From: a virus
DNA: 64,000 nucleotides
Virus record (IMG/VR): IMGVR_UViG_3300030117_005706
Location: 1 to 64,000 of that record
Strand: one strand, 5' to 3'
Shown here: positions 6,901 through 64,000 of the stretch, piece by piece
How the letters are laid out: every line of letters starts with the position of its first letter
Position numbering within the stretch: the first letter of the stretch is position 1
Notes under the pieces: model-generated
Seen by the model: the letters and a program-made list of their open reading frames with translations, nothing else
Told to the model about the DNA's origin: nothing
Databases searched by the model: none
Made by a program: the position numbers and the translations under genes

Positions 6901-9900
6901 GGCTAAGTTGTTTACAACTGGTGATGGAACACTCGTGCGAGCCAACCAGTTTGAGATTCACTATCTCATGGGACGAGGACGTGCGCTCACAATGTCTGAC
7001 GGTGACGCAGGTACGTCTATTCTCCGAGCACACGGGCTTGGGGCTGACATGGCTGCGAACTCAATTAGCGTCAAGGGCGACGGAGCACCTGATTCATTCG
7101 TCGTCAAAGAAACAATGCCCGGTTCGCCCGTTGTTACGGTAACACTCGGAGGTGCAGGTCAGGGTGCTATTAACACAAAGCCAACCTACAACCCTTCACC
7201 AACTGCTCGTCTCGGTTGGTCGACACGAAGAGACTGTTCAGTCAGAGTGTCGGCAACTACCAGTACGAAGGTTACGGTTGTGCCTCTCAATAACAAATCA
7301 TCAGCCCTTGCATCTTGGGGAACGTATTGCTTCCCGAAAGTTGGCCGAATATATTTTGCAGTTCCTGTGGAGTCAGGTGATAGTGCGACGAAGTATGCCT
7401 CAGCCGAATACACCAGCAAAGACGGAACGCAGTTCACGTTCTCTTCGGGAACGGGTCATACTGGTAGTGGTAAGTTTGTACTTACTGATGGGTCTGAAAG
7501 CGATTCTCTCAGTGCTTGGCTAACCGCAACTGGACTGAAAGTTGGGTCAACCGTTGAGGTGGACGACCAGTTCAACGAAGGCTCAATGTGCAACGATGGG
7601 ACAACCATCAATGACCGACTGTTCCAAACACTTGACACAGTTCAACACGATTACCAACTAGGCACTCAATACGCAAGTACACGAGCGATGGTTGAGATTC
7701 CCCTCTTTGACGATTTTTTCTTTGAAAACGAGGACGAGGGAATCTTCCCCGGACCTGACAACAGTATGAAGTTGCATCTTGACCCAACGTATGCTGCTCC
7801 GACATGGGCACCTAATCCTGTCGGACGGCGGGCACCGTCTATTGCGCCGGAAGACCCGACAGTCAACAGCGCATTTTCGACATCAATCAAGACAAATTCA
7901 CATCGTCGAGGCACTGTGATTAGTCAGCCATATGACTCGGCTAACCGACGCATTTATGTTCAAGATTACAAAGTCTTCCCGATTGCTACGGCTGCACCTG
8001 CTACAGTTGCATCAATTGATGGTGCACTCCGTTTCCGTCGGGCGTTTCTACCATCAGGTGAATGGGTGCTGTATGACGTCCGTAACACAAGTGGCTATCT
8101 TGAAGTAGCGGGTAGCACGACGGCTGACGACAACTGGGCGTTCAGCAAGAACTTCTTGCAAGAACTGTCAGTCGGTGTTTCAATCATTCCCGCATCGGGC
8201 TTCCAAGATATGAATTATCCTTCGATTGCTGACAACCCGTTGGTAGATAGTGCAGGGTTTGAATCTCGGCGACCTTACTATTTTGACCGTGCTAACGTCA
8301 TGACACAGGGGGGTAACGTAGACTATGGTATGAAGCAATATGTTAGTGCTGTCGAGTTCCGTGCAGGTCCTCGTGCAAATCCGCATCTTAAGCGTATCAA
8401 GAATAAACGTGCTCGTTCTACGAACAATCAGGCGTATCTTTCCAGTACACTGTTTTTGACTGACATAAGCGACTTTCCAAAGAGCAATGCACATGCATCG
8501 AATTACAAATACAGAATCGCTTGGTGGAATGGGACAGTGTACAAATTTGCTCACTACGATACAATCAACACTACAACAGGTGCGATGGTATTGAACAACA
8601 TTGACTCAGGTTTCACTCCACAAATTGGAGATGAAATTATCCTATGGGACATGCATGCGCCTTCGGGCATTTATCCTGAGGTTAAGGAAGATGCGTTTTT
8701 GAATACGACTTGGGCAAACCCATACTGTAACGGCGGACTGCGAGCAGGTGATACAATTTGGATGAACATGCACTACACAAACCCTCACGCAGTCGAGGGG
8801 CTGTTCTGTAAAAGTCGAGGGACGCTCAACGAGGCTGAGGTTTGGAGTGGATTCTTAGAGGGTGAAGGTGACTTTGCTACGACGCCACGTGAAAGTATAG
8901 CCATGGAGAACTTCTTGATTGGTAATTCGTGTATCGAAACCGCACGTAACTTCGTTCAGCACGTCAACAAAACGATTGAACTAAACTACGAAGCGCTGGG
9001 ATTGAGTGCGACGAATGCACCTACTGTTGCATACATAGACCCCTATCAATCGACTGAGGAACATGCACGTGTATTGTTGTACGACGTGGCGCACGACCGT
9101 GAATTTATTGCGTTCCAAGACCTTTGGATGCAAGTACAATCGAGTCCGCAGGCTGCGACCATCGGTAATGAACCAACATCAGCGGGCACAATCAACAATC
9201 AATCGACGGGAGCAGGTACAGGGCTTGATGTTGCTAACGGCTTCCCTTCACAGAATAAATCGCTTGCATCAACCACGCCATCCGAGTTTATGGAAGCAGC
9301 CATGGCACACAAGTCGACATGGAATTTGAATGTGGCACTTGGTACGCATGCAACTGGCTATCACGGACACACACCTAGTGACCCTGACCTCGTAGGAATA
9401 CAAATTCGCACAAACCCTGCCGTATCGTCAACCAAAGATGATTTAGCCAATGATGAACATCAGCAAATCAATGTATCAACGACTGAAAACTCGACGTTCT
9501 TTGACACACCTGATGGGACACGATGCATTCCAGTATTCTTAGCACTCAAAGGTATTCGTACAACGTCACTTGATTTGTCGACGCACGAAGAATCTCGCTT
9601 GCAGCATTTGCCTCACTGGTCTGACATGGACTTTGTTCGACGGCTTACGATTGACTTTGGCGAGATTGGAATGAAGGACGGCATTCGCAATATCGAGGCT
9701 GCTGCTCGTGAGATTGTTCGTCTGATAAATCAAGCAGGCGCACCCAATGGGCGAACACATGCACGAAAGCCTGCTGACCAATACTTTGGTGAAAGTGAAC
9801 GGTTTGCTTTGTCACGCGTAGCAAATCAGGCTGACGTGACAAATGGTATCATTGACCCTACGGCTGCTCATCTCAACGCAGGTTTTGCTGCTACTGGAAG

Positions 9901-12900
9901 TACACACGACCCTTCGCCATTTTGGGACAGGGAGAGAGCGTTTGCATCTCATGACCGTGGTACACATATGGGTTACATGCGTGCTCACCTTGGTCGAGTT
10001 GTAGCAGACTCAGGAGGTAAGCCCGGATTCAGTATCATTATTCACAGCACGATACCCGGTGCGTCAGGACGTAACTTCTGTGTATGGCTCGACAATGCAC
10101 GTGGTCAGTTATCTTATCGACCGCAGTTTTTGATTGGTCATGGTGGACGATTCCGTAACTATTGGTGTCAGCCTGACGAAATGACGGGCGAAAACATGCA
10201 CCCTGCGCCTATGCCAATCAATAGATTCGGTCGTCCCTTTGCACCAATCACCACGCTCAAAGAATATCTTCCACCCGATGAAGTAAATGAGCCATTCCGA
10301 AACAACCTTGAGTTCGGACCTGAGACTACAGGTACATCAAGTAACATGGCTTCATCAACTAGCGAAATCGCATCAGGTCGCAACTCTAACACAATCATTG
10401 ACGAATCGTTTGAGGCGAAAAGCCCCGCCTCTCAACTCATCGACGGATTGCGTATTGGCACACCTGCACGTGCTCGCATTAACTTCGGCGGTTTGACACA
10501 GGCAGGCATACCCGGTTGGGCACCTGACGCAGGCAACTGGGGCTTTGGCCGTGACCAACAAGATACTCGATTTGAGCACATTTACGGTAACAACGTCGCT
10601 GCATTTGCACAGCATGGAACAGTTGATGCGACATCGACTGGCGGTTACATACCTGATGAGCAATTGAGAACAGACAACATAGGCGACGGTCAACTGTATG
10701 GTATTCGATTCATCGACCATCGTGGTAAAAATCACACCATCCGTATGGTATATCGACAGCATGGTCAACCATTTGCAAACGATTTGACTGTACTACCGTC
10801 AACGCTTGACGATGAAACTGTCATACACTTTGATGACCGTGATGTAGGGCAAGGCGGATTCACGATTGGTAAGCACATGTTTGGCGAGGGTGATGTGTGT
10901 GGAGAGTTTACAGCAGGCACGAAAAAGAAATTTAAGGGTAATCTATGGAACAATTATCCGTCACCTGCGAGTGGTATATCAGCGACTGTTCAGGTAGTCA
11001 CAGTAAGTGGTGCTGATGCTCTTAAGATTACATTTACAGCCCCATACGATACAAGTAGTACGCTGAATCACCCTGACATCTTGGGTTATCTTGGATTCCC
11101 TGAAAAAGGTGTGATTCAACTGAATGACGTTGCGGGTACAGGTAATAGCGGTGAGCCACTCTATTATCAAAGTCGCTCACATCATGGCAAAGCAGGCTCG
11201 TCAGGAGTACACTACTTGTACAATGTTGAAGGTAACACGTCAGCGTATGGTTCAGGTGTCACACGAATCATCTGTCCACGCATGACGTTTACATCAGTAT
11301 TGACGGACGAGGTCATGGCTGCCGCAGTTGAGTTTGCTTTGACCATGGACGACCCAAATAGCGAAAACGTGGACAAGACTACGTTTGACTGTACACACAT
11401 GCTTGCACCTGACGGTCGCACGCTCGGTGAATGGGGTGTATCTCCTACAGCCATTCGTGTCAAATCACATTCAGCATCCAAGCGCATCATTCCACTACGA
11501 AAATTGTTTGAGGTCAGTCGTGAGAAAGACTGGGGATTCCAAGCGGGAGCATCTGTTCAAGCAACAGGTACTGACCACTTGGGCGGCTTGTCGTCTACCG
11601 AGATTGAAGATGGAACACGACTCGATGTTGGCTACATTCCAAAGACTGTGCTTCACATTACTACCAAATATCGAGGTACAAATGCAAACACGGCAACACC
11701 TGTTCTTGTCGATAGTGCGAACAATGTTGTTGATACAATCGATTGGAAACAAAACCTACGAGGCAACACGTTCTATAGAACAGAAGGCGACCGTGTTATA
11801 CCATGCGTCAACAGCCCTATGGTTAATGTCAATTCTAAAACAAGCACGACTATCACATTACCTTCAAGCCAATATCTGTATCTCATTACTACACCTGCGT
11901 CGACTGATACAGACAGTTGGGCTGAGAAAATTACGGTATGGCTTGGTAGCGAAGAATCAGGTATTGTATCAAGTAAACCCGGCGCAACATCAACATCTGT
12001 TCTTGAGTATGTTGCTGATTCAGCGCAGTGGAGTGGTACAATCGCAGCCAATAACATCCTCGTGAGGCAAGGTTCTATAGAGTATTCTTCGGAAGTTGGA
12101 GGTATACGCCGAGCAGGTAGTCATCACGGCGAGCCGTTCTTGCACTTCCGAGGCGCACACGATAGCCCTGACCACTGGGTGCCGCTGTACTTTGGTGGTG
12201 GATTTTCAGGTGTAACGCTCGATGTCAATGACGGTACACAAAACGACTACAGTGAGTTTTATGAACACCCATACTCAGGCGGACCGACAGGTTCGGCTGG
12301 ATTACAAAACGTTGGTGAGATAGCAGGCTCATACGCTTTGCTTGATGCAAACGCTATGCTTGCTATGTTCCCCGGAACACCGTATCTTGACCAACATGAA
12401 GGTCGCAACAGTATGCCATTCTTCAATCAAGATGCCATGCTGTCATTTGATTTAGATGCTGGTAATAGCACAAACGCTTCAAGCACTGGTGTGACGTACA
12501 CGGACAGTTCAACCACTGTTCGCTGTCAGCGACCAAGTCCAATTGTTCTCCGATTTTCACACCCACACGCTCGTTACACTGCGACGGGTGACGCTACTGA
12601 CCACACAACATACATGATTTTTGGACCCGGTCAAAGCGTACCTCACAACTTTGCAGCACACGAACCGCAACTATCCAGCATCGTTACCGGTGGTAACGGC
12701 TACAGCGGTGTGCCAACTGGCAAGAATTTACCTAATGAGATTGCACACGGTGCAGCCAGTCGCAATGGATTTAGTGCTCACTTGCCACCCACTGCTGAAT
12801 ATCAGAAAGGTAACGTACAAGGCTACAATTACGTCATGAATTGGGAGCCGTCAAAAGGCCATCCAAACAGCACTGGATTTGCTCAGACAGCAGGGCAAGG

Positions 12901-15900
12901 GTTGTTTTACGACACTCAGTTCACTGCAACGAATCCACCTGCTCATGCACACCCGATGTCGTATGTGTTTACCGACTTTGCAGGCGTCTCGATGGGTGCA
13001 GCAGGTCTTGCTACCACACTTGCACGTTCGTGTGTATGGCACATGGACGGTGGCTATCACCCCGGCGGTCACTTCCTTGACAATCACATCGAGCGTAACC
13101 CAAAGCATCCAATATCAAATAGTCGCATTGCAGGCGGCTCAGATGCTCAACAAAACCCAACAGTATTCCGTGTGTCGTCTTTGTTAGGAACTGCTTACTT
13201 AGGTACGTTTGGAGGCGAAACAGACATGACAAGCAACTCAGACTACGTTGTCATTGATGCTACACGCGCACAAAACGCTGAGGAACTTGCTGCCATTGTT
13301 TCAGCGGGTGTTAATACATTCCCCGGAACGGACCCATTGAAAGCCATAGGCGGAACATTTTTGCCTTCGTTCCAAACCGCAGCCAAGCAAGATAGGTATG
13401 GGTGGGTTGAACTTGTCATGAATGCAAATGGGTACACAGAACAGGGTGGTGCAGCCGCTACACTACAAGCAACTGCTGCTATACCTACGACGTTACCGCA
13501 GTATGGTTGGCTGCGAGTGACTGACGGTGCCGCTATCAATGGGTTTGCTTCCTATTCATCTTACACAAGTTCGACGTTCACGCTGGCTAAGAATCTGACA
13601 ACGACGACAAACATTGTCGACCCAACAACAAAGACTGCAATTGTGGCTGCACCTCTTAACTCGCTTCCCGGTGGCGCTGTCAAGATTTACGTATGGACTA
13701 AAGCGGGTGCACATCGCTACAACAACACAAGCCAATCTCGTGACCATATGACACAAGTTCACTACAGTGGTTACATCGATGCTGTTGACCGAACTAAGCC
13801 AATTGGAGCAGTCGGCTGGTCAGGAGAAGCGTATTCGTATCTAAACTCGTACAATGGCACTCAAATTGGTAGCACCAAATTCCCTGCGGGCAAAGGTGCA
13901 TGGCATCCGTTCCTTGGATTCAATCCATACGGAGCAGCCGAATCCTGTTTGTCAGGTAGTTCACCCGTTGGTGCTGATTCAATGCCTGCCAGTGTGTATC
14001 AACAGTCGTGCGAAGTTGGCTTAGCCTCACGTCACTTGATTGCTATCACGCACGAAAGTGAGATGCCTTTGATTGCAAAGGCTGACCGTGATGGTATTTT
14101 GTGTGCAGGTGATTGGCTTGACCTCAAGCGAAGCGGCACTCTCGCTAATGCAGGTACAACGCAATGGGACACTGCAAAGGTACACAACCGTGACCGATAC
14201 GTTGGTCCCGCTACAGCAGGCCCGCACGTTGAAGCGATGATGTTGGCCGATGTAAGTTCTTACCCACAAACAGCCTCGTACCCTGCTGTTGGCACGGAAA
14301 CGTACTGGCACAGTCGTGTTACATCAGCAGCACACATTGAGCGTGCTGACCCGTGTCAAAGCCCTACTGGTGATTTGTTTTGGGACGAGTCAAAGGTTAC
14401 TGCGAGTCAGTTCCACGAAGATACTGCCACATACGGCGTGACTTGTCAAGGTATTACATCACTGACACAATACAGTGCTACAGGCACTGGCATTTACAAA
14501 TTCTACAAAACACAACACCCTGCTCGTAACTTCAACGAAGAACACGTTGTATGGAAGCGTATGGACGGCGGTAACCTTACCATGCCTGCGGTCAACGCAC
14601 GGGGTCTTGGTATGGTACCGTGGGTCTATAGAAAGGATGGCGGAGCCTACAAGAAGGTCGGTGAGAAGATACTTGGAAACAATCGATTTTCGTTTGAAAC
14701 AACGAATGGTGCAATGTTCCCAATCATTCAGGCACAGGAGTTATCACACCCGCAACTGGCTGAACAGAATCAATTTGCTACAAAGGTAGAAGATGCACTG
14801 CTCATTCCAAACGAAGAGATTCAGTTCCAAAGCCTACAGGTCGTTGACGATACTGGGCAAGAGCACAGAATTGCAGGTGGCAGTCCACTCGGAACAGTCA
14901 TTCTCGATTTTAGGCATCTAAGCGATAGAGAAATAGAAGGCTTATCACCTGCACTTGCAGGCTCAGGCATCTCGCCTAATTTGAAAATCCGACTTCCTGA
15001 CCCTGATGACATTCCGGGTAACATCATTGTACGACCAAGTTTTGACCGCATACAAGGCTATCAGAACGAAACGATGGGTAGCGGCGGTATGCAACATCCA
15101 TCACAACCTCAACAAGCGATTACGGATATGTTCAGTAATGCAAAGCCCGGACCACGTGCTTGGCCTACGTGGGAGAATAACGGATGGGAGCACCTAAGCC
15201 AAGATGGTACCGACATCTCTACAACAAAGAGTGCAACACGACTCGGCTCTCCTGACTCTTCTGTCGAGGGTTGGTCTGACCACACAAACAACAATCCGCT
15301 TGAGACAGCATACGAGCCACATGACCGTTCATTGCAATTCCACATCACACGCATGGGCGTAACAATGACGCATCGTGACGACGTCGATGAACTGACATTC
15401 ACTTCCTTGTCAGGCACTGACATCAATGTAGGTTCGACGCCTGAGGACGCTGTATGGAAGGTCACCAGTGAACAAAGCGGTGGTCGTTGGTTCTTGCGAG
15501 TCTACGACCCGACGACAAACAAAGGTGTTATTGCATCCTATACTAATACGGGGTCAAGTAAATTTACTGGTGTGGTTGTATCTCCTGACTTTGTATCGTT
15601 TGTCACAGGTAAGACTGGTCTCAAAGTTGTACCTTCTTACTACATGCCTGCGGGTAGCACTCGTTTCTTTGCATCACGTCGATTGCGTGACCATAGCGAG
15701 TACAGTGGCTCAAGCCCTGACATGCCAAACATCGACTGGTCAAGCATTACTACGACTCCTTACACACAATTGACTGCACCAAAGATGACGCCTATGCCAA
15801 TCCCTCGTATGGGCCATCATTACGTCACTCCAACAATGGCATTACTACCCGGTCATTACGCTCACCCTGCCTATCAACGAATGTATGATTTACACCTTGC

Positions 15901-18900
15901 TTGTCGAAGCGCATCAAATAAGCCGTTTGAAGATGCTTACTTGGGCGATAGCGAAGTAGTCAGCAACGCACCGGGGCGTGACCCGCTTGTATGGTTCAGC
16001 GGACCAACGGCTGCGTTTGCACCATCTGATATTCACGGTGGTGCGTTTACGCTCATGACCGAGACGAAGGTCAAGTACGATGGTTATGGTATCGCTGCAT
16101 CGAACGGTTCGGCAGGGACAACCAATTCACAAGGCGGACATTCAATTGTGTTGGAAGCAGCGGGAACGTACACGCTTGACAACCACTTCCCTGACCCAAT
16201 GGAAGTCGGGGCGTATCAGATTATCATTCAGCCGAACGTGTTCTCACAACAGATTACTGGTTACCATCTCAATCACAGTGATGCAACCAAAGCCCCATCC
16301 GAGTCAGGTACGAAGGTAACTGAATTAACAGGGCAACAAGTCAACACTGTCATCGCCATAGAGCATGACAAATCTAACCTTGGTGCAATGACGCTTGTCC
16401 TTGCCGAAGCAACGATGGCCGATGTAAGAGGTTGTGAAATCATCATCAACGAAGTCATACTTGACTTGGAACCTGATGCGGGAAGTCAATTCACCAACAT
16501 ACCTACACTGGGATTGTATAATCCGCTTGGCGTTGATGAAACTGCTTCACCTGCGTTCACACGCCGTAGTCTACCATACCGACCGAACATGTTCATTCAA
16601 ACAACACCGGGTATGACTACAACAGTACCATGGTGGGCGCAGTTGCACAAAGATGGTGCACGTAACAGTGCGGCTGACGAGTTCAAGTTCCTTGAGTGGC
16701 ACACACCGGACCATTACTATCAACTCAATCGACCTGCTTTTGGTGCGGTTGGTGCACAGATTACTCTTGCAGGTTTCTCAACAATCTACCCTGACATCTA
16801 CGGCGAGCACTACCGAGCACGTAGCCTGAACCCAAGTTGTGTTGTGATTTCTTCTGACGCAAGCGCACAGACTGTCACAGTCGACAGCAACGAGTTGTTC
16901 CCTGTCGAGCCGTACTACGGTGAAGTGTTGGAGTATATCGATGCCGATGGTGAGCGCCGTACGGCTACTTACACAAATCGCACAGGCACACTGGCACACG
17001 CTACATTGGCTGCTGCTACGATATTTGAAGGCGTATCGACAGCCAACTTGTTCTTCACCAACCTTACAGCAGGTACAATCCTACGGCTTAGTGGGCCATA
17101 CGATAACAGAAAGGCAGGCGAGGTGTTCAAGGATTCTGAATCAAGCATTGCTACACGCACCCTTGCTCAGACGTTTGCAGGCACACGAGATACCAACTCG
17201 TTGCATACACCTGATGCATTCCTGTGCATGTGGCATCCGAATCTCGGTCGCCCGTATACATACTACTCAGATGACAGCAGTCGTTCGTTCTATAGCGCCA
17301 CAGGTGCAGCCGACTCACCTGTCAACAAGGCATCGCTCAACAACATCCCTGAGCATTTTGAGACAATTCACTACCACGACTTCTTCTATGCAGCGTCAAA
17401 GGGTCCGTTTGCTCTTGGCATGAAGTGGGTTGCTCCACCACATGATGCTGATAACGATGGGGCTACGGCTGACTTCCACGACGGAACGGTATATACCGCT
17501 GCACAAATGGATGCACTTGTTGATGCTTCGGGTACACTCGACCACCAAGGTGGTACGGATGGCTCAGACAAATACAACTTTGCAGGCTACTGGCCGAGTG
17601 GTTCTCGTGGAGGCGCAGGTTCAAGTCGCCTCGACGGATTCCTTGAGGCTGTCATTGGATGGGGCGGTAAGTTGTTTGGTATAGATTGCGTTGGATTCCG
17701 TGACGATAGCGGTATTGAAGAACGCACCTATGCACAGATGACAACCGATTCAGACTATGCACGGAACACATGCTTCGGTTACCGCTTCTCGGTAAGACAG
17801 CCGTACAATCGACCACGATGGTCGCCATACGTGCGGGGTTGGATTGAGGGCACAGGTACAACGAATGCGTTGCTCGGCTACTACCACGGTCCGTTTGTTC
17901 AACAAGATAACAAAACAAACGGCTGGGATTACGTTGGTGCTGACAGCAGTCAATCGGATGCGGACTTCCCTGCTACCTACACTGGTATACTGGAGCGACT
18001 GACGCAAATCAGCGCTATGCTCAACCAAGACCAAATCGGTCGACAGGTACGATACAGCGACGGTCGTCGGATGACGCAGCCGTTTGGTTGCCCTGTCCGA
18101 ACGGTGCGTAATGCGTCGACAGTACGACGCATGTACCCAAACGACCACGCAGGCTTGGGCATTGCTGAACTTGCTCAGGCTCATCGCTTCTACTTAATTG
18201 ACTGGTGGGGCAACACACGTGGTGAAGACGTGCGTCGATTCCCAGTGCGTGGATTCGGTATTCGGCCTGCGTGGGACCCTGAGGATGCTTACGCCGACAC
18301 GAACGTCGCACATCGACCTGCTGCGAACAGCCTGTTTGGTGGTGACGGCACTGACCGCTACAGTGGTAACGCCAACAACGACAACAACGCATCTTCAAAC
18401 ATGGGCACTGCGGACTGGTTTAACCCTGTCAGTGCTATGCGAGTGGGTGACCGTGGTGACGGGCGTGGTGTCCGTTGGCCTACACACTTCAACGAGAGTC
18501 TGTTGGCCGATGTATCTGAAACAGTTGAGCCATCAGGTTTGGTTGTTTCACAACCTACCGCTGAGCCAACTGTAGGAAAGGGATTGATTCGTCCACGAAA
18601 CGACGTACTGCAAACAGACGAAGTCGAACGTGGTATCAGCAATCGACTTGGTCTTGCCGACGAAGATGGATTGCTCAAGCCGACCGCTATGGTCAGCGAA
18701 GGAGTTGAGTCAGTAACTGCTAACTCGCTGTTGGCCGAGCCTGTTGGTGGTGACGGTGTGCGTGCAGGGCTTGACGTTGATACTCTTGGCGAACTGAATG
18801 ATGGTATCAGCCGTGAGTACGTCATCATGAGCACAGAAGCACACAGCCTGCACACTGACCGTGAGGTCGGACAACGTACGACACTGCGTGGAGCACTCAA

Positions 18901-19876
18901 CATTGGTAGTCAGACACTTGGACATCTTGACATGACATCGCTCTCTTGGAGTGGACAGCCTGTCAAGGGTGTGCTGCGTGTATCGAACGCTCACGCATTT
19001 TGGGCGCTCGGTGGCACATACGTGATGGATTGGTCGGTGCGAGAAGGTGTGCTGTCCGACTTCGGCTGGGGCGCAACTGCTGCGGCTGACTCGACCAACC
19101 CGTATCAGGATGCGAACCATTCGCCAAAGGTTGACCGTACGAACAACACGGACAGTACAATTGAGTTCTTACTGCGTCCGGTCATGACACTTGACAAGTC
19201 ACACATCCAAATGTTCCGACACAACCCTGTCGTGACAGGCAGTACACCGCAGGCCAGTCCGAACTTTTATGCAGCCACAGGTGGCTGTAAGTATGGCTTC
19301 TATGTCAGTGACGCACCGTCAGCCCGTACAGGTACGCCTTCGTCGCCTCCGTACAAGCCAGTGCACGGAATTAACCCAGCGATTACTTCAAGCGGTGTGC
19401 TTATCAACAATGGAGGAGGCTATTCCGCAGGCACTACAGGTGCCATGACAGTAGACACGGTAAGCGCTACGGTACACTTTGCTGTGGGCGACCGTGTATA
19501 CAATAGTTCCAGTGTACTGATAGGCACGGTCACAGCAGTAGCGACTACGTCCGTTACCATAGGAGCAGGTACTATCGTTTCTGTTGCTAACAATGATGCT
19601 CTTTACAAGAGCGACATCAAGACATCATCAAGTGACGGTCCGAAGATTCTCGGTGTCGACGTCACAGGATATACGAAGACCGATGTAACACAGCCAGTCG
19701 CCCGTATCGTCATGAGTGAGAACACGCTTGAGCACTTCCGTAGTGATGCGCCTCGTCGATTGGCTGAGGACGGTGAGTCTGACTTCTCAGTCCAGCCACG
19801 TCACAGCCAAACCCTGCACCCGAAGGGCAGTTCGGGCGATACGTCTTTTAACACGGGCGACCACAGTGGAGAGTGA
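3953..19876 (+). CDS. Giant virion/tail protein with N-terminal LamG (concanavalin-like) domain
   Basis: 5307-aa uninterrupted ORF; LamG hallmarks SFTFESWI, FRGTIETI, LGLWRFEE; G/S/T-rich beta modules. Confidence 0.8.
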   Translation: MFDLVVSADSTHAMRFNGISDAVIIPMQSFSQNAGNLQSGVPTSEMSIPTILDSFTFESWIIPDSGGIVWEYEHVMRLVVGAPSSSAPASFQVKLRSKSTGNENTFTLSSATAVTKPDGTVSHYDGVLYPRAALDLHNSYDALDGSKSDNAAVHDGHRELLQVAIVFDKRHLSLRINGDVVATKTLDSDHELVLYPTQIFVGGQGGEFRGTIETIHWARGALDSSIDPHAPVSTDSTLGLWRFEEPVEPISTILTLPSLSASTSANSAITIGTTEAQSLIDTLTGKSGITSLDLTSTTYSAGNYTVTKNAANSESTITIPQVSFNLLINPLGYNRTTGVANREAPERVRLTNVDASAGTITVESIHLDFVSNTTNGRRGLLMAHSASDAVIVIGDCLVDSGTGNQGVGTGTQFSNRQGQVVIDESSFENHGIVFSTRMAIADDPYMKFSATTNMGTAFTAGHTGRHILNHVKSHPYIGMLPRPINSEVEQNIDGSASVMTATFGPQYANVRDAAPANSVVSFYDVTGPFSVMSTRFTDTPTQVVENGMAGISDTKRGLLAIGGLFDVSPFLLRSGPDSIPEDNSDEHIRHMTPSKETRTAILEVPSLATYNRPTLVQVKYNAVDITGRGIKHAATARLTTGIGGSGTVLTFPSVKQFGANGQKIPADFISIDGEVAGVNSIVATINHSANTLTFGSAATSAFQTAATANAIVNVHLNGGALLVESTYPDVAEEVTSGTRIIDLIHTDVEAGTAQLHSAGGVIRMVSNSQMLFKEGELNGDDEEGYQTERALDFSMCPDNYLPLHSTDSAQLNPRRIFSPRASDTTRDSVFNRIVITPSGNTSDNFDVDTDGYLVQGKQGAVRKSTGVFVNNGSGHAAGTTTITVDGANATNFFAAGTNVYSLDGVLLGAVNSSTSTSITLAAGSTQAVVDNEELFYQPRKSAIGTVSQSSAVHEVFDIISHRTDRNFVEFVVQPSDRNRFTQLAKLFTTGDGTLVRANQFEIHYLMGRGRALTMSDGDAGTSILRAHGLGADMAANSISVKGDGAPDSFVVKETMPGSPVVTVTLGGAGQGAINTKPTYNPSPTARLGWSTRRDCSVRVSATTSTKVTVVPLNNKSSALASWGTYCFPKVGRIYFAVPVESGDSATKYASAEYTSKDGTQFTFSSGTGHTGSGKFVLTDGSESDSLSAWLTATGLKVGSTVEVDDQFNEGSMCNDGTTINDRLFQTLDTVQHDYQLGTQYASTRAMVEIPLFDDFFFENEDEGIFPGPDNSMKLHLDPTYAAPTWAPNPVGRRAPSIAPEDPTVNSAFSTSIKTNSHRRGTVISQPYDSANRRIYVQDYKVFPIATAAPATVASIDGALRFRRAFLPSGEWVLYDVRNTSGYLEVAGSTTADDNWAFSKNFLQELSVGVSIIPASGFQDMNYPSIADNPLVDSAGFESRRPYYFDRANVMTQGGNVDYGMKQYVSAVEFRAGPRANPHLKRIKNKRARSTNNQAYLSSTLFLTDISDFPKSNAHASNYKYRIAWWNGTVYKFAHYDTINTTTGAMVLNNIDSGFTPQIGDEIILWDMHAPSGIYPEVKEDAFLNTTWANPYCNGGLRAGDTIWMNMHYTNPHAVEGLFCKSRGTLNEAEVWSGFLEGEGDFATTPRESIAMENFLIGNSCIETARNFVQHVNKTIELNYEALGLSATNAPTVAYIDPYQSTEEHARVLLYDVAHDREFIAFQDLWMQVQSSPQAATIGNEPTSAGTINNQSTGAGTGLDVANGFPSQNKSLASTTPSEFMEAAMAHKSTWNLNVALGTHATGYHGHTPSDPDLVGIQIRTNPAVSSTKDDLANDEHQQINVSTTENSTFFDTPDGTRCIPVFLALKGIRTTSLDLSTHEESRLQHLPHWSDMDFVRRLTIDFGEIGMKDGIRNIEAAAREIVRLINQAGAPNGRTHARKPADQYFGESERFALSRVANQADVTNGIIDPTAAHLNAGFAATGSTHDPSPFWDRERAFASHDRGTHMGYMRAHLGRVVADSGGKPGFSIIIHSTIPGASGRNFCVWLDNARGQLSYRPQFLIGHGGRFRNYWCQPDEMTGENMHPAPMPINRFGRPFAPITTLKEYLPPDEVNEPFRNNLEFGPETTGTSSNMASSTSEIASGRNSNTIIDESFEAKSPASQLIDGLRIGTPARARINFGGLTQAGIPGWAPDAGNWGFGRDQQDTRFEHIYGNNVAAFAQHGTVDATSTGGYIPDEQLRTDNIGDGQLYGIRFIDHRGKNHTIRMVYRQHGQPFANDLTVLPSTLDDETVIHFDDRDVGQGGFTIGKHMFGEGDVCGEFTAGTKKKFKGNLWNNYPSPASGISATVQVVTVSGADALKITFTAPYDTSSTLNHPDILGYLGFPEKGVIQLNDVAGTGNSGEPLYYQSRSHHGKAGSSGVHYLYNVEGNTSAYGSGVTRIICPRMTFTSVLTDEVMAAAVEFALTMDDPNSENVDKTTFDCTHMLAPDGRTLGEWGVSPTAIRVKSHSASKRIIPLRKLFEVSREKDWGFQAGASVQATGTDHLGGLSSTEIEDGTRLDVGYIPKTVLHITTKYRGTNANTATPVLVDSANNVVDTIDWKQNLRGNTFYRTEGDRVIPCVNSPMVNVNSKTSTTITLPSSQYLYLITTPASTDTDSWAEKITVWLGSEESGIVSSKPGATSTSVLEYVADSAQWSGTIAANNILVRQGSIEYSSEVGGIRRAGSHHGEPFLHFRGAHDSPDHWVPLYFGGGFSGVTLDVNDGTQNDYSEFYEHPYSGGPTGSAGLQNVGEIAGSYALLDANAMLAMFPGTPYLDQHEGRNSMPFFNQDAMLSFDLDAGNSTNASSTGVTYTDSSTTVRCQRPSPIVLRFSHPHARYTATGDATDHTTYMIFGPGQSVPHNFAAHEPQLSSIVTGGNGYSGVPTGKNLPNEIAHGAASRNGFSAHLPPTAEYQKGNVQGYNYVMNWEPSKGHPNSTGFAQTAGQGLFYDTQFTATNPPAHAHPMSYVFTDFAGVSMGAAGLATTLARSCVWHMDGGYHPGGHFLDNHIERNPKHPISNSRIAGGSDAQQNPTVFRVSSLLGTAYLGTFGGETDMTSNSDYVVIDATRAQNAEELAAIVSAGVNTFPGTDPLKAIGGTFLPSFQTAAKQDRYGWVELVMNANGYTEQGGAAATLQATAAIPTTLPQYGWLRVTDGAAINGFASYSSYTSSTFTLAKNLTTTTNIVDPTTKTAIVAAPLNSLPGGAVKIYVWTKAGAHRYNNTSQSRDHMTQVHYSGYIDAVDRTKPIGAVGWSGEAYSYLNSYNGTQIGSTKFPAGKGAWHPFLGFNPYGAAESCLSGSSPVGADSMPASVYQQSCEVGLASRHLIAITHESEMPLIAKADRDGILCAGDWLDLKRSGTLANAGTTQWDTAKVHNRDRYVGPATAGPHVEAMMLADVSSYPQTASYPAVGTETYWHSRVTSAAHIERADPCQSPTGDLFWDESKVTASQFHEDTATYGVTCQGITSLTQYSATGTGIYKFYKTQHPARNFNEEHVVWKRMDGGNLTMPAVNARGLGMVPWVYRKDGGAYKKVGEKILGNNRFSFETTNGAMFPIIQAQELSHPQLAEQNQFATKVEDALLIPNEEIQFQSLQVVDDTGQEHRIAGGSPLGTVILDFRHLSDREIEGLSPALAGSGISPNLKIRLPDPDDIPGNIIVRPSFDRIQGYQNETMGSGGMQHPSQPQQAITDMFSNAKPGPRAWPTWENNGWEHLSQDGTDISTTKSATRLGSPDSSVEGWSDHTNNNPLETAYEPHDRSLQFHITRMGVTMTHRDDVDELTFTSLSGTDINVGSTPEDAVWKVTSEQSGGRWFLRVYDPTTNKGVIASYTNTGSSKFTGVVVSPDFVSFVTGKTGLKVVPSYYMPAGSTRFFASRRLRDHSEYSGSSPDMPNIDWSSITTTPYTQLTAPKMTPMPIPRMGHHYVTPTMALLPGHYAHPAYQRMYDLHLACRSASNKPFEDAYLGDSEVVSNAPGRDPLVWFSGPTAAFAPSDIHGGAFTLMTETKVKYDGYGIAASNGSAGTTNSQGGHSIVLEAAGTYTLDNHFPDPMEVGAYQIIIQPNVFSQQITGYHLNHSDATKAPSESGTKVTELTGQQVNTVIAIEHDKSNLGAMTLVLAEATMADVRGCEIIINEVILDLEPDAGSQFTNIPTLGLYNPLGVDETASPAFTRRSLPYRPNMFIQTTPGMTTTVPWWAQLHKDGARNSAADEFKFLEWHTPDHYYQLNRPAFGAVGAQITLAGFSTIYPDIYGEHYRARSLNPSCVVISSDASAQTVTVDSNELFPVEPYYGEVLEYIDADGERRTATYTNRTGTLAHATLAAATIFEGVSTANLFFTNLTAGTILRLSGPYDNRKAGEVFKDSESSIATRTLAQTFAGTRDTNSLHTPDAFLCMWHPNLGRPYTYYSDDSSRSFYSATGAADSPVNKASLNNIPEHFETIHYHDFFYAASKGPFALGMKWVAPPHDADNDGATADFHDGTVYTAAQMDALVDASGTLDHQGGTDGSDKYNFAGYWPSGSRGGAGSSRLDGFLEAVIGWGGKLFGIDCVGFRDDSGIEERTYAQMTTDSDYARNTCFGYRFSVRQPYNRPRWSPYVRGWIEGTGTTNALLGYYHGPFVQQDNKTNGWDYVGADSSQSDADFPATYTGILERLTQISAMLNQDQIGRQVRYSDGRRMTQPFGCPVRTVRNASTVRRMYPNDHAGLGIAELAQAHRFYLIDWWGNTRGEDVRRFPVRGFGIRPAWDPEDAYADTNVAHRPAANSLFGGDGTDRYSGNANNDNNASSNMGTADWFNPVSAMRVGDRGDGRGVRWPTHFNESLLADVSETVEPSGLVVSQPTAEPTVGKGLIRPRNDVLQTDEVERGISNRLGLADEDGLLKPTAMVSEGVESVTANSLLAEPVGGDGVRAGLDVDTLGELNDGISREYVIMSTEAHSLHTDREVGQRTTLRGALNIGSQTLGHLDMTSLSWSGQPVKGVLRVSNAHAFWALGGTYVMDWSVREGVLSDFGWGATAAADSTNPYQDANHSPKVDRTNNTDSTIEFLLRPVMTLDKSHIQMFRHNPVVTGSTPQASPNFYAATGGCKYGFYVSDAPSARTGTPSSPPYKPVHGINPAITSSGVLINNGGGYSAGTTGAMTVDTVSATVHFAVGDRVYNSSSVLIGTVTAVATTSVTIGAGTIVSVANNDALYKSDIKTSSSDGPKILGVDVTGYTKTDVTQPVARIVMSENTLEHFRSDAPRRLAEDGESDFSVQPRHSQTLHPKGSSGDTSFNTGDHSGE

Positions 19877-19880
19877 TAGC

Positions 19881-20450
19881 ATGACACCGATGGATGAGGC
19901 TTGGCTTATTCTCAAAACCAGTCGGCAAATGAAGTTGTACAATTACATAGAAGACTATCCCGGTATGGCTCCAGTGACCGCCTATCGAGGAGTTCCTTTT
20001 TTGAGTACACGACCGCGTGACATATCCACACACAGTCAAAAGCGTAATAACCCTGTAGATATGAATACTATGGGTACGTTTTGGGCTGAACAAGGTACGA
20101 ACGAACCTCATGCGACTGCGTCAACCTTTGGTATTAGGGGGGCGGAAGAAGGGCGACCTGCGCTTTCACGTGTTCGTGTGCTTGGACACAGAGGTCCGTT
20201 AGAAAGTAGTGGTAAAGTTCAGCGAAGAACGGGAGTATGGAACCCTACAAATGATGCGTTTTTGGACGAGGCAATTCTTTCTCATAACAAACCACTTGAT
20301 TTAGAAAACTTAGTCATCTCTTTGCCATCAGAAAGTGAAACATTTGGCATGACTGGGGATGAATATGTAAATTGGGTTACTGAGCAAAAAAAGTTACGTC
20401 CGGGTTCTTATACTGATGTTGAACCTGATTTGTTATTGGAGGACAATTAG
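19881..20450 (+). CDS. AWxxLK-tagged protein with putative ADP-ribosyltransferase fold
   Basis: Likely start ATG 19881 (MTPMDEAWLILK); TAYRG...GTFWAE...ATASTFG...DEAIL pattern resembles ART strands. Confidence 0.55.
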   Translation: MTPMDEAWLILKTSRQMKLYNYIEDYPGMAPVTAYRGVPFLSTRPRDISTHSQKRNNPVDMNTMGTFWAEQGTNEPHATASTFGIRGAEEGRPALSRVRVLGHRGPLESSGKVQRRTGVWNPTNDAFLDEAILSHNKPLDLENLVISLPSESETFGMTGDEYVNWVTEQKKLRPGSYTDVEPDLLLEDN

Positions 20451-60712: not shown

Positions 60713-61300
60713 TCAAGCGTTTTTCTGAGCGTCAAGGAATGCCTTGAAGTCGACGAGTTGCGCTTGGGTCATGTGGATGGGGGTCATCTCAGCGTCAGCC
60801 ATTGGCTCAGGTGCGGGTGCACCAGCCTTGAATGCGTCGAGGGCAGCAATGCTTTCGGCCTTGCGTACTGGGTCAGTCACGCCGTTGGCGCCGAACCAGT
60901 CGTTGCCGCAGTTGGCACGAAGCCATGCCTTGTCCTCGGCTGTGAGTTTGCGCTTGGTTTTGCGTGTGCTTGGGTCGTAGTCTTGGCTGTCGATGAGGTT
61001 CATCAACCATGCGAGGTTGGATGATTCGCCAATGCGACCTTGCTTGTCAGCCTTGCCTGTGTAAGTTGCTTCGATGGCGTCGGCCATGCCCTTGGTGTCA
61101 CCCTCGATGAAGGCTCCCTGTATGTGGGTCAGTGTTCGGTGCATGATGCCAAGACCTCGTGCGGTGGTCAAGATGGCTTGCAGGTCTTTGACTGCGGCCT
61201 TCGTGCCCTTGCGTAGTCGCTTCGCTAACTTGGCGACAAAGGTTTCGTTGTTCATGCGTGCTTGCTGTGCTTTGCTTGTCTGTGTACTCATTGTATTCAC
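60713..61300 (-). CDS. Ala/Lys-rich hypothetical protein, first gene of the leftward arm
   Basis: 195-aa ORF with biased codon use, downstream of the promoter at 61423. Confidence 0.75.
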   Translation of the reverse strand: MNTMSTQTSKAQQARMNNETFVAKLAKRLRKGTKAAVKDLQAILTTARGLGIMHRTLTHIQGAFIEGDTKGMADAIEATYTGKADKQGRIGESSNLAWLMNLIDSQDYDPSTRKTKRKLTAEDKAWLRANCGNDWFGANGVTDPVRKAESIAALDAFKAGAPAPEPMADAEMTPIHMTQAQLVDFKAFLDAQKNA

Positions 61301-61422
61301 TTCCGTATTGCAACCGCCCCCCTACGAATGCAGGGAAGCACCCCCACACCAACGGCGCTGATGCACCGAGGGGGAGGTGCCCCCCAAGTGAGGGGGGAAG
61401 CCGACCTATCATTATCTTGCCA

Positions 61423-61434
61423 CTTTAAATAGGG
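61423..61434 (-). promoter_or_regulatory. Viral TATA-like promoter CCCTATTTAAAG
   Basis: Fourth exact copy; flanks resemble the 47779 copy. Confidence 0.7.
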
Positions 61435-61458
61435 CCAGCCAAAAAAGGGCAACTCACA

Positions 61459-62037
61459 GAGGGCTTTACTACCACTCGATAGCGACCACCAATCACACAT
61501 GGGGAGGGCTTTACGAGGGGGGCTTTACGCCGCTTACAGAAGCATCAACAATGACACACACCCATATGTGTGGGGCTTGCCCCCGACCAACCAACCGACT
61601 ACCCCACACAGCGAGGCCACTGACACACCACAGCGGCCTGACTCACACACCACAGCGAGGCGGCTCTCATGCGTGGCTGCTGATTCGCTTTCCCATGAGA
61701 GCAGTGACCCTTTCACGGGCGACGGCTGACCACGCCCCCTGTGCTGACTGACCCCTTTGCGTGTGTGGACTGAGGCGGCTAACCGTGACACTGCGAGGCT
61801 GCTTCACACGTGGGGCGGCGGCCTCTTCTCACACAGGCGGCTACCCTAAACGTGTGACTGCGAGCCGACACACACGTGTTGGTGTGTCCCGTACGTGTAG
61901 TCGCTTTACTACACATGAAAACGCCTTACTGCGAGGGCTTTACGAGGGGCTTTACTTAGGCGGAGGGATGGCTTTACGGGGGCGCTTTACGGTGCTTAAG
62001 CCACACACGGCGCTCGACCAAAATTTTGAAAAATTTT
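61459..62037. repeat. Non-coding repeat region: eight GCTTTAC copies and CACAGCG repeats
   Basis: GCTTTAC at 61463, 61508, 61522, 61903, 61937, 61949, 61971, 61984; 17-bp exact repeat at 61504 and 61933. Confidence 0.75.
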
Positions 62038-62109
62038 AGTATACTAACGCCACCTTAGTGTACTAAAAGCCTGCGACACCGTTAAGCCGCAGGGCTACAT
62101 GGCTCGCTC

Positions 62110-62892
62110 ATGGACCCGTTTGACGCAGCGTGGTCAATTCTCAAAGGAGACTTTATTCTCGGCGGCCAAGACTATGATTTAGGTAACTTCGCTGCTGATT
62201 ACACTGGTCCCGAATACGAGGGCACTCCCTATGAAACAGCCCTTCCGCCCCTTCAACGATTTGAGCGATACGACCCAAGCAACATGCACCTCGGCACGAA
62301 ACGAATGATGGTGCCGCAATCCATGGCAAATATCTCGGAAGGTCAAATGTCTCCACGTGTGACTCGTGTAGTAGATAATGTTCCGACACAGCAGCCGTAC
62401 TTCCGTGGTTCGTCGGTGCCCAGTGTGAGAGATGGAGGCTTAGCAGCCGTCAACGTAGCAAGTGTGTTAGCCGACAAAAAGGTGAGCAACTTCGATGACT
62501 TTGCTCGTTTGGTAGGTAGCACGGCGGCGCATGAGGAAGTGCATCGGCTTATCGAACCTGAAATTCATGAATGGTCAGTGCAGCAGACAGGCGTGAAGAA
62601 TCACGACCCGGAAGACTTTGAGCACTCGCTGCCTGCCAATCGTGCATTTCTAACCCTTAATTCATTGGGTCACGAGAAAGGGGCGTTTGCTCTCACACCC
62701 GGCATGACTCAAAAAGAAAAAGACAAATTTTTGAGGCGACGTTATGCCTTTTCACCTTACCTCAACCCCATTGGTCGTGAAAGGCTCATAAATGAACTTC
62801 ACCTTGCACGAAGCCCTATGCCACCTGACTCGACTCTGACTTTGGACGAGTTGCGAGAGGCTATCGCCGCCCGAATGCGGCAGCAACAATAA
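62110..62892 (+). CDS. AWxxLK-tagged putative zinc metalloprotease
   Basis: MDPFDAAWSILK; AAHEEVH (HExxH) with downstream HEKGA. Confidence 0.65.
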   Translation: MDPFDAAWSILKGDFILGGQDYDLGNFAADYTGPEYEGTPYETALPPLQRFERYDPSNMHLGTKRMMVPQSMANISEGQMSPRVTRVVDNVPTQQPYFRGSSVPSVRDGGLAAVNVASVLADKKVSNFDDFARLVGSTAAHEEVHRLIEPEIHEWSVQQTGVKNHDPEDFEHSLPANRAFLTLNSLGHEKGAFALTPGMTQKEKDKFLRRRYAFSPYLNPIGRERLINELHLARSPMPPDSTLTLDELREAIAARMRQQQ

Positions 62893-63185
62893 TATCACAC
62901 GTCTTCCTCAGACTACCATGTCCAGTCCTGACGAAGCCGCTTGGTTAGTGTTGAAACAACTCTCTTCCTTTCCAATAATCAGTACCGGTCAGCCTTGTCA
63001 GACCTGTGCGGGTACGGGTAAGATGATGACACCTGTTGGTGCTGCACCTTGCTTCGCTTGTCAAGGTACTGGTAACGAGACACCGCTGCCTTCGTCACCT
63101 ACCCCTGACCCTATGACTGGAAGCATTTACCAGTAAGCAAATCGTCGGATAATTTCATATCACACGTCTGCCTCAGACCACCATG
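62892..63185 (+). promoter_or_regulatory. 29-bp direct repeat ending in ATG (62892-62920, 63157-63185)
   Basis: ATATCACACGTCTKCCTCAGACYACCATG, 27/29 identical. Confidence 0.75.
62918..63136 (+). CDS. AWxxLK-tagged DnaJ-type Zn-finger microprotein
   Basis: MSSPDEAAWLVLK; CQTCAGTG and CFACQGTG. Confidence 0.7.
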   Translation: MSSPDEAAWLVLKQLSSFPIISTGQPCQTCAGTGKMMTPVGAAPCFACQGTGNETPLPSSPTPDPMTGSIYQ

Positions 63186-64000
63186 GTCAGCCCTCTTGAT
63201 GTCGCATGGGACGTTGCTAAGGGTGAACCCTTTCACCCAAGTGTAGCAGGCTACATGGCGGCAGGGCACGGCGGAGAACGTGACCGAGCGATTTTGGAAG
63301 AAATGCGCCGGATGGAAGAAATTTACGGCACCATGCCACTACACGGAATGGCGGCACTGGAGTTTCACAACAAGTACATGGAACTTCAAAATTCACTAAG
63401 TGACGACCCGCACGGCCTTCAAACCATGCGTGCTGCAAGGCCGAACGCCGAGCGTGAAAACAGACCTCATAGTTTTCGGCCCTACGACAGATTTGGTGAG
63501 TACGATATTAGTCGACAAAGCACAGACGATATGCCGCCAAGGACAATGCGTTCAGGTGAGCGTGATGCGTTAAGATTACGAATGTACAATGCAGGGCGAG
63601 GAAAACCAGTAGGTCCGACAGGTGAACTTGACACGCTTGCACATCTTTCGGATGAACCTCTTAGGGCTATCAGAACCGACACACAAATTCTTTCTGACGA
63701 ACTTGACCGTGAACACGAGACACGTTTGCCTGAAATGGGAGACACAGGTCGACTTAACCCTTCGATGTTACGCTCATCCGACTCTCCCATTGACACGGCT
63801 TGGTCAATCCTCAAGGAACTGTCACGTGAAGATTTAGAGATGGCTGCTCGCACAGGCGGTATTCCAATTACGGATGCTCGTCGACAGGCATTCGCTGATT
63901 CTCCCGAAGAACTTTCTCCGACTTTGTTACAAACTATGCGACCTGAATTTTTGCCAATGAACCAACCGATTACGGACGACTTCGGCAACATCATCGTCAA
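63183..64000 (+). CDS. AWxxLK-tagged protein, open past the window end (missing from ORF track)
   Basis: MVSPLDVAWDVAK...; no stop up to 64000; internal second tag PIDTAWSILK at 63786-63815. Confidence 0.8.
   Translation, partial: MVSPLDVAWDVAKGEPFHPSVAGYMAAGHGGERDRAILEEMRRMEEIYGTMPLHGMAALEFHNKYMELQNSLSDDPHGLQTMRAARPNAERENRPHSFRPYDRFGEYDISRQSTDDMPPRTMRSGERDALRLRMYNAGRGKPVGPTGELDTLAHLSDEPLRAIRTDTQILSDELDREHETRLPEMGDTGRLNPSMLRSSDSPIDTAWSILKELSREDLEMAARTGGIPITDARRQAFADSPEELSPTLLQTMRPEFLPMNQPITDDFGNIIV

Follow-up and report, generated by a model that had tools for sequence, protein, structure and literature searches.

A ten-residue peptide shared by unrelated late proteins of a group A magrovirus is a candidate virion cargo tag

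Why do late viral proteins with unrelated bodies open with the same ten residues? The question is raised by positions 1 to 64,000 of IMG/VR virus record IMGVR_UViG_3300030117_005706 (here called the window), in which a first, sequence-only reading noticed the peptide P-x-[DE]-x-A-W-x-x-L-K (the tag) five times in four proteins and took it for an address label that loads effectors into the virus head. We analysed the tag in the window, in the whole contig and in related genomes. By analogy, we give about even weight to the reading that it is a virion cargo tag, most likely for the head, which would resemble the capsid-targeting sequence (CTS) of phage T4 and would possibly be clipped after its Lys by an S78 prohead protease. 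We arrived at this reading because four features fit the logic of the T4 CTS: the restriction of the tag to one strand and to certain gene modules, the diversity of the payloads, the presence of an ADP-ribosyltransferase (ART) among them, and a tag helix that, in a structural model, is not packed on the protein that bears it.

A six-frame scan of the window with the pattern P-x-[DE]-x-A-W-x-x-[LIVA]-K returned exactly five matches, all on the + strand, with the Pro at 19887, 62116, 62927, 63192 and 63786. Copies and strand are those that the sequence-only reading had reported. Four of the five tags start 1-3 residues past an ATG that opens an open reading frame (ORF; 19881, 62110, 62918 and 63183). 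Scored with a hidden Markov model (HMM) of the tag, the copies are as follows.

19881..19916, + strand: tag copy 1, MTPMDEAWLILK, at the N-terminus of gene 19881-20450 (19.1 bits)
62110..62145, + strand: tag copy 2, MDPFDAAWSILK (20.6 bits)
62918..62956, + strand: tag copy 3, MSSPDEAAWLVLK (12.1 bits)
63183..63221, + strand: tag copy 4, MVSPLDVAWDVAK, in which Ala replaces the penultimate Leu (10.2 bits)
63786..63815, + strand: tag copy 5, internal PIDTAWSILK, residues 202-211 of the 63183 ORF (17.5 bits)

When the whole genome was scanned with a looser pattern, 12 matches were found on the + strand and none on the - strand. Among the annotated proteins the loose pattern matched 11 times, versus 0.65 matches expected from residue shuffles (shuffle maximum 3). 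The tag HMM added internal copies in 69136-70041 and 75781-76935, and the genome total stands at 13 clear tags plus 2-3 decayed ones, all on the + (structural) strand. N-terminal tags belong to the genes starting at 19881, 62110, 62918, 63183, 64603, 65342, 66206, 67887 and 81394; the last of these lies just downstream of TerL, has the tag at its start and probably begins in truth at a TTG a few codons in. Internal tags are found in the genes 63183, 64603, 69136 and 75781, and decayed tags open 65735, 68201 and 70228. Gene 68189-69139 carries a decayed start tag (MSWFEILK) and a second decayed ten-residue tag (PELKKSVFVK) directly before a conserved SPEAKRHKVEYD module, which bears the full tag in relatives.

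What kind of virus is this, and what does the + strand encode? The window is the first 64 kb of a contig of 103,328 bp, the first and last 645 nt of which (1-645 and 102684-103328) form a direct terminal repeat with 96% identity; because of this end repeat we take the contig for a complete, terminally redundant genome of ~102.7 kb. The - strand holds a replication module with a thermosome-type chaperonin, a family B DNA polymerase (PolB) and an RFC-like clamp loader, as well as ERCC4 and PD-(D/E)XK nucleases, an SNF2 helicase and a weak, sub-threshold match to the bacterial beta-clamp domain that marks a possible sliding clamp. Group A magroviruses are recognised by a thermosome together with an SNF2 helicase (PMC5434244); since both are encoded here, we assign the virus to that group. 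None of the magroviruses has been cultured (PMC5434244). Judged by the capsid protein, the nearest cultured relatives are the haloviruses HVTV-1 and HCTV-1/5 (33-36% identity), and HVTV-1 has the capsid protein, portal and protease in common with the magrovirus genome. The structural genes used as landmarks below are these.

79914..81413, + strand: TerL
83461..85221, + strand: portal
91810..93273, + strand: Peptidase_S78 prohead protease (PF04586) fused to a long scaffold-like tail
93289..94386, + strand: HK97/SU10-type capsid protein

Is the tag a peculiarity of this genome? One back-translated tag pattern, searched against IMG/VR, found 96 stretches. Since nearly all of them have TerL, portal, capsid protein, giant tail protein or thermosome in common with this genome, we regard the stretches as magroviruses. 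A total of 136 out of 182 tag copies come after an ATG within a few residues. A Met at most 3 residues upstream of the match was seen for 62 of 103 matches in viral loci versus 5 of 80 among the cellular-genome matches listed; among the latter, the same DNA pattern gave scattered internal matches in unrelated bacteria, apparently by chance. In five further genomes (at least 98% complete, TerL 53-80% identical) the pattern matched 11, 6, 10, 4 and 9 times, with 40 of the 40 matches on the TerL strand, opposite PolB, while a reversed-pattern control gave 0-1 match per strand per genome. The claim that the tag is confined to the late, structural strand and missing from the early and replication genes of the - strand holds across this genome and the five others. 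A 50-kb late and replication stretch of HVTV-1 (45001-95000) contained no tag, and no mention of the motif was found in the magrovirus papers examined.

Within these genomes, tagged genes occur only inside or beside morphogenetic modules. Some follow the giant tail gene, others flank TerL or stand between the genes for capsid and connector, and a cluster of them directly precedes the head module. Such sites raise the alternative that the tag docks late accessory proteins to another assembly hub, be it portal/terminase, the tail or one of two giant proteins of 1803 and 5307 aa, and that its carriers are virion-associated non-cargo proteins or assembly factors. The giant tail gene always has a tagged gene behind it; next to TerL, the upstream gene of relatives ends in a tag and our own 81394, on the downstream side, starts with one; and proteins with several tags would suit multivalent attachment. 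However, the carriers are small enzymes and zinc-ribbon proteins and not fibre- or baseplate-like, and the largest tagged cluster abuts the head module. We therefore consider docking to another hub unlikely, if worth keeping in view.

Is it the peptide that is conserved or the DNA beneath it? The consensus drawn from 126 distinct copies reads M-[NTSQD]-P-[MIFL]-D-x-A-W-x-[ILV]-L-K, after which a small residue, Asp and Pro often come. Among 113 different DNA versions, every synonymous codon is used at the conserved Pro, Asp, Ala, Leu and Lys positions (all four for Pro; AAA 59 and AAG 54 times for Lys), which indicates that selection acts on the peptide. The DNA had been called diverged in the sequence-only reading. 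This is borne out for the tag itself by the synonymous codons, but not for the DNA upstream of 62918 and 63183, where two copies of a promoter-like repeat, its function being a prediction, are found.

62892..62917, + strand: 26-nt promoter-like repeat copy 1, ATATCACACGTCTTCCTCAGACTACC, ending at the ATG of 62918
63157..63182, + strand: 26-nt promoter-like repeat copy 2, with 2 mismatches to copy 1, ending at the ATG of 63183

The repeat comes with an AT-rich box ~27 nt before the ATG and no Shine-Dalgarno sequence, and the same cassette lies 5' of a tagged gene in a relative (L034). Similar AT-rich boxes precede 66206 and 67887 (contig ~66175-66205 and ~67855-67886), while 64603, 65342 and 65735 have GGAG-type ribosome sites instead. 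As far as the nucleotide pattern goes, AT-rich boxes without a Shine-Dalgarno sequence suggest leaderless transcripts with their own promoters.

The shared repeat bears on a further alternative, according to which the tags have no common function and the similar N-termini reflect paralogy or a DNA element (promoter, translation start or recombination site) that is merely read as peptide. Two other observations speak in its favour: 63183 and 64603 are paralogous over 210 residues, and the DNA of a second form of the tag, found in polyprotein-like ORFs of relatives, is fairly uniform, the Ser before its Glu-Pro always being AGY. However, the use of all synonymous codons at conserved residues largely refutes this alternative. 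Moreover, the bodies differ in folds and motifs, the tag is present in N-terminal, internal and C-terminal positions, and the pattern persists across genomes with TerL only 53-80% identical. A tag devoid of common function thus appears very improbable.

In shape, the tag is a helix of ~2.5 turns, capped by Pro, with one hydrophobic side (h..AW.hL) and a Lys at its end. In the AlphaFold2 (AF2) model of 65735 it forms a helix at residues 4-16, with a predicted local distance difference test score (pLDDT) of 55-64, and is not packed on the body; the 10-residue block means of the body are mostly 82-96, with a loop block at 121-130 reaching 61.

What does the tag carry? BLASTP sorted 153 unique tagged proteins into 83 clusters. 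Full-length homology among 19881, 62110, 62918 and 63183, which had been named beforehand as refuting the idea of a shared tag, was not found in this clustering, and the bodies are unrelated as first described. Many of the tagged bodies are 60-250 aa long and several have CxxC ribbons, and for most of them, as for the C-terminally tagged proteins, Pfam and PHROGs gave no match. Carriers that could be named comprise ADP-ribosyltransferases, a zincin-like HExxH protein, zinc-ribbon proteins, small basic DUF6321/DUF5872 proteins (67887 is DUF6321, and 69136 contains DUF5872) and coiled-coil proteins. The tagged genes of the window are listed here.

19881..20450, + strand: 189-aa tagged gene, by family HMM a divergent member of an ART-fold family, between the 5307-aa giant gene and the next tail-module gene
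62110..62892, + strand: 260-aa tagged gene, the first rightward gene after the intergenic repeat region, with invariant HExxH...E and GHE.GA motifs
62918..63136, + strand: 72-aa tagged gene with two CxxCxGxG zinc-ribbon motifs (Pfam DnaJ_CXXCXGXG, E = 1.7e-5, 25.4 bits, below the 32.7-bit cut-off)
63183..64000, + strand: 5' part of a 466-aa two-module ORF ending at contig 64583, its N-module paralogous to that of 64603-65334

The commonest tagged family continues after the tag with RQTxLGE..FPS.YGPV.YHGT and is encoded after the giant tail gene in most relatives; here its members are 65735 and 19881. A profile search of 1.84 billion representative proteins yielded 312 relatives. Against the PDB, the family profile matched ART-fold chains only (PARP16, diphtheria toxin and Tpt1/KptA, E 0.05-1.4). 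The AF2 model of 65735-66175 is confident (pLDDT 84.5, predicted template modelling score 0.77), and every top Foldseek and VIA match to it is an ART fold, with Tpt1/KptA the best (Z 9.3, root-mean-square deviation 2.6 A over 82 residues). On the strength of the profile matches, the model and the structural matches we place the family in the ART fold, which is the fold predicted for the body of 65735. The Y-H-G-T and G.G.Y.T motifs align with H-G-S and G-x-G-x-Y of PARP16 (19881 has Y-R-G at the first motif); the third position of the catalytic triad (H-Y-E or R-S-E) was not located. Membership of 19881 comes via the family HMM only (alignment A3, E = 3.3e-12, with the contribution of the tag included), and orthologues with 93% identity occupy the same position in L041, L052, L064, L073 and L094. 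As a side observation, a 5313-aa representative protein (P0132) matched part of the ART-family profile in six stretches; the 5307-aa giant protein of this genome gave no match to the ART-family HMM in a local search.

For 62110, an alignment of homologues (A2, n=14) shows HExxH...E to be invariant, and 13 of the 14 keep the tag, with P0008 being N-terminally truncated. The AF2 model made with the 14 homologues reached a pLDDT of 38.5, and the ESM Atlas lead to M10/reprolysin-like peptidases has a score of 0.90 only. The sequence-only reading had called the bodies effector-like. This is upheld for the ART family by the HMM of 19881 and the fold of 65735, and only in part for the other two, as 62110 has an invariant HExxH but a poor model and the zinc ribbon of 62918 scores below the curated cut-off. 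In two relatives (L005 and L045) we further noted a tagged 138-aa gene after the giant tail gene whose body begins ...FATQAHGDQLYGDQPYMTHVEDVA; by motif and by eye, it looks like a SpoT/RelA-type HD (p)ppGpp hydrolase, which would add an enzyme class to the carriers.

Bodies such as the ART, the SpoT-like HD hydrolase of L005 and L045 and the HExxH protein could plausibly act on host targets, and this is one argument for viewing the tag as a short linear motif for a host or viral hub in the cell (chaperonin, RNA polymerase or proteasome/PAN), which would recruit late effectors that are not packaged or time their turnover. In addition, terminal amphipathic helices are typical of hub docking, and the virus encodes a thermosome. 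Yet none of ~60 replication or early-strand genes in six genomes bears the tag, and the tagged genes are embedded in structural operons. Nor was a terminal motif seen on a host protein among the cellular matches listed, a search in which the Poseidoniales hosts were not targeted. On balance we hold a cellular address to be improbable.

Is the tag bound to the start of a protein, as the proposed N-terminal address label would have it? It is mostly N-terminal, but it is also internal and, in relatives, C-terminal and repeated at junctions, so this part of the sequence-only reading was too narrow. In L034, the downstream module of 63183 (ALSREDLEMAARTGG...) is a separate 282-aa gene beginning MVSPLDTAWSILK, and the downstream module of 64603, whose first 210 residues are paralogous to those of 63183, is a separate gene beginning MVSPFDSAWSILK. 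From this comparison the internal tags mark gene fusions; two-module fusions in this genome are 63183, 64603, 69136 and 75781. In other magroviruses the position of the 62-70 kb cluster is taken by 700-1200-aa ORFs with 3-5 junction tags each. At these junctions a second tag dialect is used, [TSAR]-[GS]-E-P-M-[DE]-[IL]-A-[MWFY]-[RQ]-L-L-K. P0056 has five junction tags and L227-L238 contain multi-tag ORFs, and a repeated junction motif between modules, as in polyproteins, is present in the relatives only. At the other end, a 520-680-aa gene immediately upstream of TerL ends ...EPIDLAWSILKGA, followed by the stop codon, in several relatives. That is, the tag functions, or at least persists under selection, at N-termini, junctions and C-termini. 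In close relatives, fusion and splitting of modules takes place precisely at tags, which makes the tag the breakpoint for module exchange.

The residue before Glu-Pro at the L227-L238 junctions is Ser or Gly; Ser is encoded by AGY in 18 of 18 cases and never by TCN, and Gly by GGY. This bias points to shared descent of the junctions by duplication, or to a constraint at the nucleotide level, as judged from the codons.

The multi-tag ORFs lend themselves to another explanation, in which the tag is chiefly a protease recognition or processing signal that separates the modules of late polyproteins, with the N-terminal copies of single genes as remnants or equivalents that have no part in targeting. 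The long ORFs with 3-5 junction tags sit where separate genes are found here, and an S78 protease is encoded. However, the 136 of 182 copies at the extreme N-terminus belong to single-module genes that need no processing and are as conserved as the junction copies, 6 of the 10 positions are conserved, which is above the usual need of a cleavage site, and some internal copies (68189) have decayed. A pure processing signal is, in our estimate, distinctly improbable. Other candidates were rejected. A read-through Shine-Dalgarno sequence plus start codon could produce the G-E-P-M junction, but fails as a general explanation, since about half of the junctions have Ser (AGY)-Glu without GG and since the N-terminal tags begin two codons before the Pro. 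For a 2A-like skipping peptide, the conserved part lies on the wrong side, after the Pro and not before it. A Sec/Tat or pilin-type signal peptide and a PIP/APIM clamp-binding motif were rejected by eye on the sequence pattern.

If cargo is clipped after the Lys of the tag, where else might the protease cut? The prohead protease (PF04586 at E = 7.6e-11, 42.8 bits versus a cut-off of 21) aligns to HK97 gp4. The S78 protease of HK97 removes a scaffold domain of 103 residues (PMC10275583), and residues 103/104 of HK97 gp5 are K/S (here and below, a slash marks the bond in question). In ten magrovirus protease-scaffolds, h-[LIV]-K-[SGA] is kept inside an otherwise variable N-terminus as a candidate site, conservation stops at FRILK/E, and [ILF]-x-K-[SA] is kept ~30 residues from the C-terminus in a variable stretch; HVTV-1 has VQK/S at about the same distance from the C-terminus of its protease-scaffold. 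Residues 32-38 of the capsid protein read [LI]-L-K/A-D-[AS]-P and align to S-K/A-D in HVTV-1 at an overall identity of 36%. In other phages, the C-terminal end of the scaffold binds the coat. Here, the relaxed pattern [DEN].[AGS]W..[LIVM][KHR] found nine tags and one other match in 64 proteins, namely the C-terminal tail of the scaffold, NMSWDDVH (chance total 0.41), and this tail bears a weak resemblance to the tag.

For the cargo reading we propose that a portable helical docking peptide brings fast-changing accessory proteins to the virion during assembly, and there most probably to the interior of the procapsid. The late strand would express the tagged proteins, whose helix would dock to the capsid protein or to the protease-scaffold at a conserved site, perhaps the one used by the W-containing C-terminal helix of the scaffold. 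The S78 prohead protease would then cut itself, the capsid protein and the tag end at h-x-K/small sites, freeing the cargo inside the head, and at infection the cargo would exit with the DNA. In its full form this amounts to plug-and-play delivery: a ten-residue helix that mimics the coat-binding tail of the scaffold would load any protein into the procapsid, be clipped after Lys by an HK97-type protease and let the protein be injected with the DNA, serving more than 80 interchangeable payload families, ADP-ribosyltransferases included, that are shuffled at the tag as genes or polyproteins. This complete scheme we put forward tentatively, as something short of an even chance.

Several points weigh against the cargo reading or its details. 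The relaxed pattern that finds the scaffold tail was broadened post hoc, and the tail goes undetected by the tag HMM. The tail shows no W-to-M covariation with the tag dialect, as it keeps Trp in genomes that have Met, Phe or Tyr in their tags. Two of the candidate sites, 'LLK' ahead of the protease domain and 'FRILK' where that domain ends, coincide in the alignment with strands belonging to the S78 fold (HK97 gp4 'IAAMK'), so their conservation may reflect folding rather than cleavage. The position that follows the tag Lys is free to vary (A, G, S, N, R, Q, E and more). By their sequence, C-terminal tags (...AWSILKGA before the stop) would lose only two residues if cut after Lys, and a polyprotein cut there would leave each module bearing the tag of the next, so that C-terminal and junction tags would seem to misfit a simple leader-clipping scheme. 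Finally, adjacency to structural genes is no proof of a virion location.

How does the tag compare with known systems? T4 Alt is an ART that is packaged in the head. As with the CTS of T4 IPI-III and Alt, the short terminal peptide is the sole common part of diverse, fast-evolving late-gene proteins, one class of carriers is an ADP-ribosyltransferase, and a prohead protease is encoded nearby, with the magrovirus peptide ending in a candidate protease site. The internal proteins of T4 are diverse and have nothing but the CTS in common, which takes them into the scaffolding core (PMC3012670). Unlike in T4, the magrovirus protease is of the HK97-type S78 family with Lys as candidate P1, whereas T4 gp21 cuts after Glu; the host is archaeal, with 13-16 carriers per genome; and the tag is also internal, C-terminal and repeated in polyprotein-like ORFs. 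Nor does its consensus M-x-P-h-D-x-A-W-x-h-L-K show likeness to the T4 CTS. Because peptide sequence and protease family differ, the tag would be an analogue of the T4 CTS and not a member of it.

Encapsulin cargo peptides and the scaffold tails of HK97 gp4 and P22 are short terminal peptides that bind the inner face of an HK97-fold shell; in HK97 gp4 it is the C-terminal tail, in the P22 scaffold a C-terminal helix-turn-helix. The conserved C-terminal tail of the magrovirus scaffold has a W-centred pattern like that of the tag, a weak resemblance missed by the tag HMM. Encapsulin peptides, in contrast to the tag, are usually extended and C-terminal and serve few dedicated cargo enzymes. MuF-type polymorphic toxins and the HVTV-1 head proteins gp113-115 also tie variable enzymatic domains to the head module of a related capsid lineage, but their domains are covalently fused to a large head protein, whereas the magrovirus bodies are separate genes linked by a ten-residue tag. 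Herpesvirus assemblin with its R and M sites resembles the protease-scaffold, whose conserved candidate sites lie where the protease domain ends and ~30 residues short of the C-terminus; protease family and site sequence are different, and the magrovirus sites are proposed from conservation only. In phage P1, the N-terminus of the anti-restriction protein DarB (Dar system) directs packaging, and this segment suffices for capsid entry and delivery with the DNA (PMC9024508). Unlike the tag, that signal was described for one protein, with no consensus shared over dozens of families and no removal by a protease described.

Some neighbouring features were noted in passing. The ~800 bp between the divergent - and + arms (61300-62109) are without genes and contain GGGCTTTAC-like repeat clusters and a CACAC-rich core; candidate roles for it are those of an origin, packaging site or promoter region. 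The 5307-aa protein is encoded by a single ORF (3953-19876, + strand) that fills a quarter of the window and is kept in relatives at 59-97% identity over thousands of residues. Between TerL and portal lies a 446-aa gene (contig 82124-83464, L002:124-1464) that is present in all relatives with 37-46% identity over most of its length and has a LAGLIDADG-like motif, AGFMDADGSIF; a Pfam search gave no family for it. The 1803-aa protein (contig 86389-91800, L002:4389-9800) lies between portal and protease, where HVTV-1 encodes its large 'zeta toxin' head protein, and its sole Pfam match is a weak one to ATP-dependent DNA ligase (E = 2.5e-4, below the cut-off).

Magroviruses rank among the most abundant archaeal viruses of the surface ocean. 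If the cargo reading is true, archaeal viruses would have in the tag their first described cargo-loading signal, which would also be the most widely deployed such signal known, with more than 12 carriers per genome and dozens of payload families in an abundant ocean lineage. The tag would turn ~10% of the 'dark matter' genes of magroviruses into a defined class of candidate injected proteins for host takeover or anti-defence in their uncultured Poseidoniales hosts, make such proteins findable in metagenomes by a simple sequence rule, and be a compact means of loading foreign proteins into HK97-fold shells. Even with another receptor, a motif of ten residues around which the genes of a virus family fuse, split and are shuffled would be a useful key for annotation.

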